Of a DNA stretch of 4,807 nucleotides, positions 1-1,264 are shown in pieces. Origin of the DNA: a virus (Duplodnaviria; Heunggongvirae; Uroviricota; Caudoviricetes); IMG/VR virus record IMGVR_UViG_2690316347_000013; one strand, given 5' to 3'. Under the pieces are notes generated by a model that saw only the letters and a list, made by a program, of their open reading frames with translations, was not told the origin of the DNA and searched no databases. A program made the position numbers and the translations under genes. Each line of letters starts with the position of its first letter. Positions within the stretch are counted from its first letter, which is position 1.

Positions 1-36
1 TGAAGTGGCACACTGAATTTGGCCACCTGAACAGAG
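1..36. repeat. IS911 left terminal inverted repeat (IRL)
   Basis: TGAAGTGGCACACTGAATTTGGCCACCTGAACAGAG pairs with the reverse complement of 1214-1249 (TGAAGTGGTCAACAAAAACTGGCCACCGAGTTAGAG). The first 8 bases and the GGCCACC block are identical. Confidence 0.8.
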
Positions 37-72
37 GTGATATGCTCACCTCAGAACAACACAGGTGCTCCA

Positions 73-375
73 ATGAAAAAAAGAAATTTTAGCGCAGAGT
101 TTAAACGCGAATCCGCTCAACTGGTTGTTGACCAGAAATACACGGTGGCAGATGCCGCCAAAGCTATGGATGTTGGCCTTTCCACAATGACAAGATGGGT
201 CAAACAACTGCGTGATGAGCGTCAGGGCAAAACACCAAAAGCCTCTCCGATAACACCAGAACAAATCGAAATACGTAAGCTGAGGAAAAAGCTACAACGC
301 ATTGAAATGGAGAATGAAATATTAAAAAAGGCTACCGCGCTCTTGATGTCAGACTCCCTGAACAGTTCTCGATAA
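73..375 (+). CDS. orfA: IS911 OrfA, the small HTH/leucine-zipper transposition regulator (100 aa)
   Basis: ATG at 73 gives [42 protein letters not shown]..., ending at TAA 373-375. The track ORF from 37 starts at a GTG with no ribosome-binding site; the ATG at 73 is the likely start. Confidence 0.9.
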
Positions 376-1241
376 TCGGGAAACTCAGAGCGCATTATCC
401 TGTGGTCACACTCTGCCATGTGTTCGGGGTTCATCGCAGCAGCTACAGATACTGGAAAAACCGTCCTGAAAAACCAGACGGCAGACGGGCTGTATTACGC
501 AGTCAGGTACTTGAGCTACATGGCATCAGCCACGGTTCGGCCGGAGCAAGAAGCATCGCCACAATGGCAACCCGGAGAGGCTACCAGATGGGACGCTGGC
601 TTGCTGGCAGGCTCATGAAAGAGCTGGGGCTGGTCAGCTGTCAGCAGCCGACTCACCGGTATAAACGTGGTGGTCATGAACATGTTGCTATCCCTAACTA
701 CCTTGAAAGGCAGTTCGCCGTGACCGAGCCAAATCAGGTGTGGTGCGGTGATGTGACCTATATCTGGACGGGTAAGCGCTGGGCGTACCTCGCCGTTGTT
801 CTCGACCTGTTCGCAAGAAAACCAGTGGGCTGGGCCATGTCGTTCTCGCCGGACAGCAGGCTCACCATGAAAGCGCTGGAAATGGCATGGGAAACCCGTG
901 GTAAGCCCGGCGGGGTGATGTTCCACAGCGATCAGGGCAGTCATTATACGAGCAGGCAGTTCCGGCAGTTATTGTGGCGATACCAGATCAGACAGAGTAT
1001 GAGCCGGCGCGGAAACTGCTGGGATAACAGCCCAATGGAACGCTTCTTCAGGAGTCTGAAGAACGAATGGATGCCGGTGGTGGGTTACGTAAGCTTCAGC
1101 GAGGCAGCTCACGCCATAACGGACTATATCGTTGGATATTACAGCGCACTAAGACCGCACGAATATAACGGTGGGTTACCCCCAAACGAATCGGAAAATC
1201 GATACTGGAAAAACTCTAACTCGGTGGCCAGTTTTTGTTGA
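73..1241 (+). CDS. orfAB: IS911 OrfAB transposase produced by programmed -1 ribosomal frameshift at 324-330
   Basis: orfA frame (codons AAA 325-327, AAG 328-330) and orfB frame (next codon GGC 330-332) are joined by the A-AAA-AAG heptamer. Both frames are free of stops across the junction. Confidence 0.85.
321..1241 (+). CDS. orfB: IS911 OrfB frame (DDE catalytic domain), probably initiated at AUU 321-323 in the -1 frame
   Basis: The frame is open from 321 to TGA at 1239-1241. GGAG at 309-312 lies 8 nt before ATT 321-323. Catalytic triad context is visible ([31 protein letters not shown]). The first GTG/ATG in this frame is at 402, which is the start used in the ORF track. Confidence 0.7.
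324..330 (+). other. A-AAA-AAG slippery heptamer for programmed -1 frameshifting
   Basis: Sequence aaaaaag at 324-330 sits in the correct phase relative to orfA. This is the classic IS911/IS3-family frameshift motif. Confidence 0.85.
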
Positions 1242-1249
1242 CCACTTCA
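1214..1249. repeat. IS911 right terminal inverted repeat (IRR)
   Basis: Reverse complement matches IRL at roughly 21 of 36 positions, including the TGAAGTGG terminus. The orfB stop codon (1239-1241) lies inside this repeat, as is typical for IS3-family elements. Confidence 0.8.
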
Positions 1250-1264
1250 GAAGCAGTTTTTACG

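Follow-up and report, generated by a model that had tools for sequence, protein, structure and literature searches.

We analysed a window of 4,807 nucleotides, the whole stretch of DNA under study, from a Caudoviricetes record in IMG/VR. The left end of the window is occupied by a complete IS911 element of the IS3 family (positions 1 to 1249, plus strand), which at 1249 bp has the length of all the Shigella-type copies that we compared. Its nucleotide identity to RefSeq copies annotated as "IS3-like element IS911 family transposase" was 99.4% over positions 1 to 1249. The terminal inverted repeats are 27 nt long, imperfect (74% complementary) and bounded by 5'-TG...CA-3'. The left repeat (IRL; positions 1 to 27, plus strand) begins with TGAAGTGG and pairs with positions 1223 to 1249, where the right repeat (IRR; plus strand) ends with GACCACTTCA and carries the canonical G at position 1243. 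Since the exact seeds shared by these ends are only 8 nt, an inverted-repeat search with a seed of 9 missed them, while a seed of 7 recovered them.

Between the repeats lie orfA (positions 73 to 375, plus strand), which encodes 100 amino acids with an HTH_Tnp_1 domain (PF01527, E = 5e-14), and the orfB frame (positions 330 to 1241, plus strand), which is in the -1 frame relative to orfA and has an rve integrase core (PF00665, 111 bits) with the DD(35)E triad. The programmed -1 frameshift heptamer A AAA AAG was read directly in the orfA frame at positions 324 to 330 (plus strand). A -1 fusion at this heptamer gives an open OrfAB of 389 amino acids that ends at position 1241, and the motif D227...D...(35)...E...K was found in the fusion protein. 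The window element thus shares with known IS911 the imperfect TG...CA repeats, the 100-residue OrfA, the A AAA AAG heptamer and the DD(35)E triad. IS911 transposes by a copy-out-paste-in route through a circle, using OrfA and a frameshifted OrfAB transposase (PMC2909936). The literature length of OrfAB is 382 amino acids (PMC2909936), whereas it is 389 here and in the GenBank gene calls for identical copies.

A chromosomal IS911 in one related genome (L009) matched the window copy at 1249 of 1249 positions (100%) and is flanked by a TAC/TAC duplication. Because this identical copy carries a duplication, we take the IS911 variant of the window to have been mobile recently. One mismatch separates it from the copies in four other genomes described below (L007, L010, L019 and L022). 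Among plasmid copies of IS911, those that scored best are annotated as frameshifted and have a 2-bp insertion that is missing from the window copy.

To the right of IS911 and on the minus strand lies an intact gene for a Q-like late antiterminator of the DUF1133/AntQ type (positions 1265 to 1819, 184 amino acids). The protein scored 356.6 bits against PF06576 (DUF1133) and 29.4 bits against PF06530 (Phage_antitermQ; cutoff, 26). Searching the PDB with this protein returned only Q21 (6P18 and 6JNX), as weak matches over two collinear stretches with E values from 2.5e-4 to 4e-4. The two Pfam matches place the gene in the Q family by homology. Its TGA stop codon is the complement of positions 1265 to 1267 and stands exactly 15 bases (positions 1250 to 1264) before the end of IS911. 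In five retrieved loci (L002, L011, L013, L018 and L026), the gene order was DUF1367, YbcO, Q, a short noncoding module, tRNA genes, holin, lysozyme and Rz, which puts Q between nin-region genes and the lysis cassette. A further prophage remnant, in which an identical Q gene is followed by an intact module, is present in the genomes closest to the window (L009 and L010 are from one assembly).

At its other end, the window stops within an IS600-like element of the IS3 family (positions 4729 to 4807, plus strand), of which the first 79 nt are present. This element begins with TGAGGTAGCC, has its orfA ATG at position 4793 and truncates a 118-amino-acid open reading frame; homology to FDAARGOS_944 (L011) stops at position 4728, just before it. 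We take the element to be IS600 from its end sequence. An earlier idea of a 77-nt IS600 end, as expected from an assembly overlap of k = 77, was dropped since the element starts at position 4729 and thus contributes 79 nt.

The junction between Q and IS911 was absent from 5,426 complete E. coli genomes, in which every match to window positions 1150 to 2110 began at position 1250. Two relatives provide the IS-free state. RMDEC465 (L002), where the site is free of any IS, was 100% identical to the window over positions 1250 to 2110, and FDAARGOS_944 was 99.8% identical over positions 1250 to 4733 and is also IS free there. In both, the Q stop codon is followed by a 189-bp spacer and then by genes for tRNA-Ile(CAT), tRNA-Arg, tRNA-Thr and tRNA-Gly, a region that matches Stx2 phages. 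Genes for holin, the lysozyme RrrD and Rz lie about 1.18 kb downstream, with terminase and head genes beyond them. The empty site reads ...caagaatT|GAAGCAG... in RMDEC465 and, on the plus strand of the window, ...CAAGAAT|GAAGCAGTTTTTACG, with IS911 entering between +15 and +16 from the Q stop. By comparison with the RMDEC465 site, the GAA at positions 1250 to 1252 is a candidate 3-bp target-site duplication, whose partner copy would fall to the left of the window.

These results bear out much of the first-pass annotation of this DNA. It had placed the end of Q at position 1265 and that of IS911 at position 1249 with a 15-bp gap, and all of these coordinates hold. It had judged IS911 to look intact, and both repeats, open orfA and orfB, the DDE triad and the heptamer were all found. 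The alignment to IS-free relatives that it had suggested yielded the empty site in RMDEC465 and FDAARGOS_944. Its proposal that IS911 sits where the late promoter would be expected agrees with both relatives, which run from position 1250 into the module, the tRNA genes and the holin-lysozyme-Rz cassette. Its alternative suggestion, that the window begins at a contig break in a repeat, fits with the other end stopping 79 nt into the IS600-like element.

The block of about 100 nt that opens the post-Q spacer is conserved to a degree that exceeds that of the Q coding sequence upstream, and its 23-nt core occurs in more than 120 IMG/VR contigs. We extracted 76 unique 243-nt variants from the retrieved loci. 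The variants have an A-tract, a TTG (73/76), a variable spacer of exactly 17 bp (19 versions), a TG (68/76) and a TTnAAT at fixed spacing from the TTG (73/76, with TTCAAT in 68). On the 3' side of this last element come six variable bases, the sixth of which is T, and then a conserved A that is followed by (C/T/A)GCTTCGCAAAGCTGTAYCGCGAGGCGAA. About 25 variable bases follow, and the module closes with a hairpin and a T-run; the sequence of the hairpin varies, and a hairpin is always present. Conservation thus extends to the leader but not to the spacer or the discriminator, both of which differ among variants. In the IS-free relatives, the window-type terminator is GAGCCCGC-UUUAU-GCGGGUUUUUUU (with the 3' arm also given as GCGGG) followed by U7. 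Folding the 186-nt spacer as RNA gave a 13-bp hairpin followed by U7, with a z score of -4.25, better than all 200 shuffles. The form of the module is kept where the upstream gene encodes an ORF6N protein instead of Q, and because it persists beside this non-Q gene, we consider the constraint on the module to act on its DNA or RNA and not on any encoded protein.

We interpret the module as a putative sigma-70 promoter with a -35 element of TTGCTT, a 17-bp spacer and a TG-extended -10 element of TTCAAT. Transcripts would begin near +25, counted from the Q stop, and a terminated leader of about 75 nt would result. Based on this conservation, a remnant of the proposed late promoter would remain in the window at positions 1250 to 1275 on the minus strand. 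The predicted -35 TTGCTT (positions 1275 to 1270) lies in the last codons of Q, the 17-bp spacer spans positions 1269 to 1253 and ends in the TGC of the extended -10 (positions 1255 to 1253), and the TTC that follows (positions 1252 to 1250) is cut by IS911. The candidate GAA duplication is this TTC read on the other strand, that is, the first half of the proposed -10 TTCAAT. The proposed -10 does not have the usually essential A at position 2. A consensus promoter and terminator scan called no promoter at the module, and the scanner also missed the obvious hairpin-T7 terminator.

Other assignments were considered for the promoter. A pairing of TTGACG, which overlaps the Q stop, with TAYGCT was rejected because it would need a 21-bp spacer, and the pairing of TTGACG with TTCAAT was rejected with its 10-bp spacer. 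TGTAYC was likewise rejected as a -10 element, since its position 2 is G in some variants and A in others. Under every candidate pairing that we considered, IS911 is placed within the predicted core promoter or no more than 10 bp from it. Several weak Rfam matches at the module (Trp_leader, OrzO-P, RyhB and others) were rejected as merely reflecting the terminator hairpin.

We compared this arrangement with two known kinds of late control. In the antQ-isrK-orf45-anrP region of the Salmonella prophage Gifsy-1, a promoter and terminator for isrK lie immediately downstream of antQ (PMC4825925). Two products come from the isrK promoter, a terminated RNA of 77 nt and an mRNA made by read-through, and the Q-like antiterminator AntQ is toxic if overexpressed (PMC4825925). 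One retrieved locus (L017) has this arrangement in the order Q, isrK and ORF6N. Its Q is 86% identical to the window Q and is followed by a promoter, TTGACT-18-TATATT, whose -35 element overlaps the Q stop. The isrK match in this locus scored 75.6 bits (cutoff, 50) and starts 33 nt after the Q stop, with an ORF6N (anti-repressor-like) gene beyond it. In contrast, the window-type module scored 19.9 bits against the IsrK family RF01394, below the gathering cutoff of 50 (FDAARGOS_944 positions 10582 to 10655). The two systems are alike in that a promoter, an intrinsic terminator and the short RNA made between them come directly after a DUF1133-type Q; for the module, the promoter and the RNA are predicted. 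They differ in the sequence of the module and in the leader, which has one hairpin rather than two. They differ also in what lies beyond, since the window-type module leads to tRNA and lysis genes and not to orf45-anrP, and in that the module is cut or missing in the window. By sequence and score, the window-type module falls outside the isrK family, although its place and its size are those of IsrK.

The second comparison is with the PR'-qut-tR' regions of lambda and the Stx phages. In Stx phages, PR' is constitutive and terminated at tR', and StxS is processed from the terminated transcript (PMC7547250). The order of Q, promoter (putative in the module), short leader, intrinsic terminator and late genes is the same in these phages, whose short RNAs are 6S RNA and StxS, and the Stx phages also have tRNA genes between tR' and the late genes. 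However, the lambda and Stx PR' regions have no sequence similarity to the module. Q21, for its part, is only remotely like the window Q (E about 3e-4).

The genomes closest to the window indicate that this prophage had already decayed. In L007 (GCA_900457235.1), the sequence is identical to the window over 3558 of 3558 positions (1250 to 4807), including the IS600-like junction at position 4729. This junction is common to L007 and L019, and it is absent from L010 and L022 (HE616528.1), the last of which we take to be Shigella sonnei 53G. Judging by these closest relatives, the host of the window DNA would be of Shigella sonnei type. All four genomes have an IS911 in the same orientation as in the window, inserted within tRNA-Ile, 262 bp after the Q stop and so 247 bp beyond the site of the window IS911. 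The IRR of these +262 copies (GACTACTTCA; variant, TGAAGTAG) has an A at the position equivalent to 1243, and the copies have no target duplication. On their IRL side, 376 bp are missing, comprising the end of tRNA-Ile, the tRNA-Arg, tRNA-Thr and tRNA-Gly genes and 136 bp more. IS2 interrupts the holin gene in L007 and L022, and the holin region of L019 also contains an IS. The L007 prophage has a truncated integrase, which is separated from queH by nothing but IS copies and a Rha fragment, and it has no repressor, cro or replication genes. Because the derived IS600 junction is common to the window, L007 and L019, the lineage of the window almost certainly acquired the +262 IS911, the tRNA deletion and the holin lesions first.

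Taken together, we believe that the window records a fresh insertion of a canonical IS911 into the post-Q promoter module of an already dead lambdoid prophage remnant of the Shigella sonnei type, and we put the probability of this reading at roughly 60%. An active, canonical IS911 copy would have transposed into the short conserved regulatory module after the Q-like gene. In its IS-free form, this module would comprise a constitutive late promoter (PR'), a promoter-proximal region for Q loading and a terminator (tR'), and transcription of the PR'-tR' unit would terminate after about 75 nt, giving a short RNA that may be compared with lambda 6S, StxS and IsrK. Once made, Q would let RNA polymerase read through into the four tRNA genes and the holin-lysozyme-Rz cassette. 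Entry of IS911 at +15/+16 would split the proposed -10 hexamer (TTC|AAT), so that the Q gene is left intact and the promoter adjoining it destroyed. A 3-bp duplication would rebuild TTCAAT on the distal side, preceded there by IRL instead of by the TG motif and -35 element. The older IS911 at +262 and the other lesions would have come first and the IS911 at +15 later, an order that we infer from the relatives. The new IS911 and the old one would then flank a stretch of about 245 bp, which may have been retained or may have been removed when the two direct copies recombined. On this reading, the IS911 at +15 is a secondary insertion in a dead prophage, an episode of ordinary decay and a kind of event already known.

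Whether the junction arose by insertion turns largely on the IRR. Removing exactly 245 bp from L007 (L007 positions 10571 to 10815) would give the window sequence, except for the G at window position 1243, where L007 has an A. It might thus be supposed that there was no new insertion and that the +262 IS911 instead deleted the adjacent 245 bp, from its IRR to +15, removing the module and the tRNA-Ile fragment. The exact correspondence with L007 and the shared orientation of the IS would be expected in that case, and the +262 copy lacks a target duplication and has already lost sequence beyond its opposite end. However, a plain adjacent deletion from the +262 copy would keep the A, which is found in all four genomes with that copy, and an extra reversion or conversion would be needed to account for the G. 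The canonical G is also present in the L009 copy with the TAC duplication. The copy-out-paste-in circle route of IS911 normally gives no adjacent deletions (PMC2909936), and the end points share no microhomology. We thus favor a fresh insertion by this sequence criterion and regard an adjacent deletion as unlikely.

An artifact of assembly, in which a collapsed IS911 repeat was wrongly joined to the Q flank, was weighed against the same junction. The contig runs from the first base of one IS to 79 nt into another, as a repeat-bounded short-read contig would, and the junction is unique to the window sequence. Neither it nor the predicted reciprocal junction (with a duplication of 3 to 5 bp) was found in GTDB, JGI metagenomes, IMG/VR, the retrieved loci or the 5,426 complete E. 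coli genomes. As it was found in no other collection, the Q-IS911 junction rests on one assembly. However, the join is base precise at the IS terminus and has no repeat longer than 5 nt in common with the flank, so that a graph assembler would have needed real spanning reads to make it, and the intervening 245 bp are unique sequence that would not be skipped. We give such an artifact very little credence indeed.

The remaining alternative accepts the insertion and differs in what it struck, namely an otherwise functional prophage in which this single IS911 uncoupled Q from an intact late operon to the left. In favor of it, IS-free relatives have an unbroken series of Q, the module, the tRNA genes and an intact lysis cassette, and the window IS911 is intact with a canonical IRR. 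Against this, L007, which shares the IS600 junction and the 3,558-bp identity, already has the IS911 in tRNA-Ile, the 376-bp deletion and the IS2 in holin, and it has no immunity or replication genes. L019 likewise has the same junction together with the +262 IS911 and an IS in the region of the holin gene. In addition, Q works in trans, so separation alone would bring no inactivation. Uncoupling of a functional prophage is thus highly improbable, and the claim of the first-pass annotation that IS911 locks the prophage into a defective state is not supported, on the same evidence. L007 had its IS911 in tRNA-Ile, its 376-bp deletion, its IS2 in holin and its truncated integrase already, with no repressor, cro or replication genes, and a second identical Q with an intact module lies elsewhere in the closest genomes.

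The related claim, that IS911 separates Q from the lysis and structural operon, holds in part. A predicted promoter is indeed struck, but the added distance alone would be harmless. Lambda Q acts in trans on a promoter-proximal site. As diffusible proteins, Q factors load beside paused polymerase at an element in the DNA (bioRxiv 10.1101/651190), and their trans action on a promoter-proximal site is documented (PMC7547250; bioRxiv 10.1101/651190). Because Q is diffusible and acts in trans, damage to the promoter or to the loading site would be what matters, and not the distance between Q and its operon.

The sequence flanking IRL is expected to differ among these outcomes. A simple insertion with the module retained should give TTC-AATTCTTGTACGC..., 245 bp and then a second IS911, while loss of the module by IS911 x IS911 recombination should give TTGTCGGTCAGGTTACG.... 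The uncoupling of a functional prophage would instead predict TTC+AATTCTTG... leading into the tRNA genes, an intact holin and an immunity region.

Beyond annotation, the insertion probably has little significance, being one more IS911 in an IS-rich and already defective prophage remnant. It does show clearly, in a natural case, how an IS can strike the core of what would be a phage late promoter. The promoter-leader-terminator module downstream of AntQ-type Q genes is widely conserved and unstudied, and it merits a further look. If the module makes a regulatory RNA like StxS or IsrK, strains with an IS at +15 would be natural knockouts. A bolder hypothesis is that the module in E. coli and Shigella prophages is an uncharacterized late promoter with an unusual TG-extended TTCAAT -10 that constitutively makes an IsrK/StxS-like RNA of about 75 nt, and that the IS911 at +15, an IS1 at +52 and the IS911 at +262 were selected because they silence late transcription that depends on Q and could be toxic, instead of having accumulated by neutral decay; we consider this very doubtful.

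IS-driven prophage decay is well known in Shigella genomes. The window differs from the usual picture in that an insertion at +15 was found in no other genome searched, and it resembles that picture in that several IS copies lie in the same prophage region of related genomes. Among these, FDAARGOS_943 has the IS1 at +52, flanked by a 9-bp duplication, and IS600 is present at two or more sites in this region.

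Directly after the Q stop, the IS-free counterpart of the sequence to the left of window position 1250 was found at 10545 to 10660 of the FDAARGOS_944 locus. It carries a noncoding module of about 100 nt that is widely conserved 3' of AntQ-type Q genes; some phages have it 3' of an ORF6N gene. In order, the module has a TTG, 17 bp, and the motif TGnTTCAAT, followed by a conserved single-hairpin leader and then a terminator. The module probably represents an unstudied short-RNA unit of the PR'-tR' kind, with a late promoter and its terminator. The module scored only 19.9 bits against the isrK model (Rfam cut-off, 50 bits). 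At L017, a locus with the sister Q allele, the stretch 3' of Q (8000 to 8201) contains isrK (75.6 bits), overlapping a match to the “c4-a1b1” target (Rfam), and a C4 antisense RNA (77.6 bits, Rfam) at the beginning of the ORF6N gene. Therefore, the Gifsy-type isrK-anrP unit appears to be akin to the c4-ant immunity circuit of P1/P7.

The module is also interrupted in a relative. In FDAARGOS_943, an IS1 (L003, 8196 to 8963) lies 52 bp past the same Q stop, within the leader hairpin, and is flanked by a duplication of 9 bp (CGCCTCGCG). No IS occurs at that position in the sister strain FDAARGOS_944, and the IS1 is an independent insertion. An older, resident IS911 is located in tRNA-Ile(CAT) in the closest relative (L007, 10816 to 12064) and in L010, L019, and L022. 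One of its terminal repeats is mutated (TGAAGTAG in place of TGAAGTGG), no target duplication was found at any of these four loci, and a 376-bp deletion of the tRNA Arg-Thr-Gly cluster adjoins its IRL side. A single genome, GCA_014725795.1, holds two prophage remnants (L009 and L010) that encode an identical 184-aa Q protein. Both remnants keep the module 3' of Q intact but differ in the position of IS911, which is at +262 in one and, oppositely oriented, roughly 1.5 kb downstream in the other.

Since the last 79 nt of the window (4729 to 4807, beginning TGAGGTAGCC, orfA ATG at 4793) belong to an IS600-like element of the IS3 family, both window ends fall at IS copies. A 118-aa ORF has lost about 42 codons from its start to this insertion; the remainder occupies 4498 to 4728 (minus strand), and L007 and L019 share the junction. 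At 1249/1250 and 4728/4729, each target resembles the first five bases of the inserting element (empty site TGAAGCAG versus IS911 end TGAAGTGG; AGAGGCG versus IS600 end TGAGGTA). IR-targeted insertion is known for IS911 (PMC9333248), and with only two cases the resemblance may be due to chance. The OrfAB of the window copy (73 to 1241) is 389 aa, the length that GenBank gene calls also give for identical copies, as opposed to the 382 aa in the IS911 literature (PMC2909936).

Among the cargo genes, the 95-aa gene (2744 to 3031, minus strand) had no match in our Pfam scan but is entered as PF27490 (Rem) in precomputed tables; apparently, the scanned library predates that family. The sok antitoxin RNA (3431 to 3606, minus strand; RF01794, 117 bits) lies upstream of the 51-aa Hok/Gef gene (3281 to 3436, minus strand) and overlaps it. 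With both components present, the hok/sok pair is intact.
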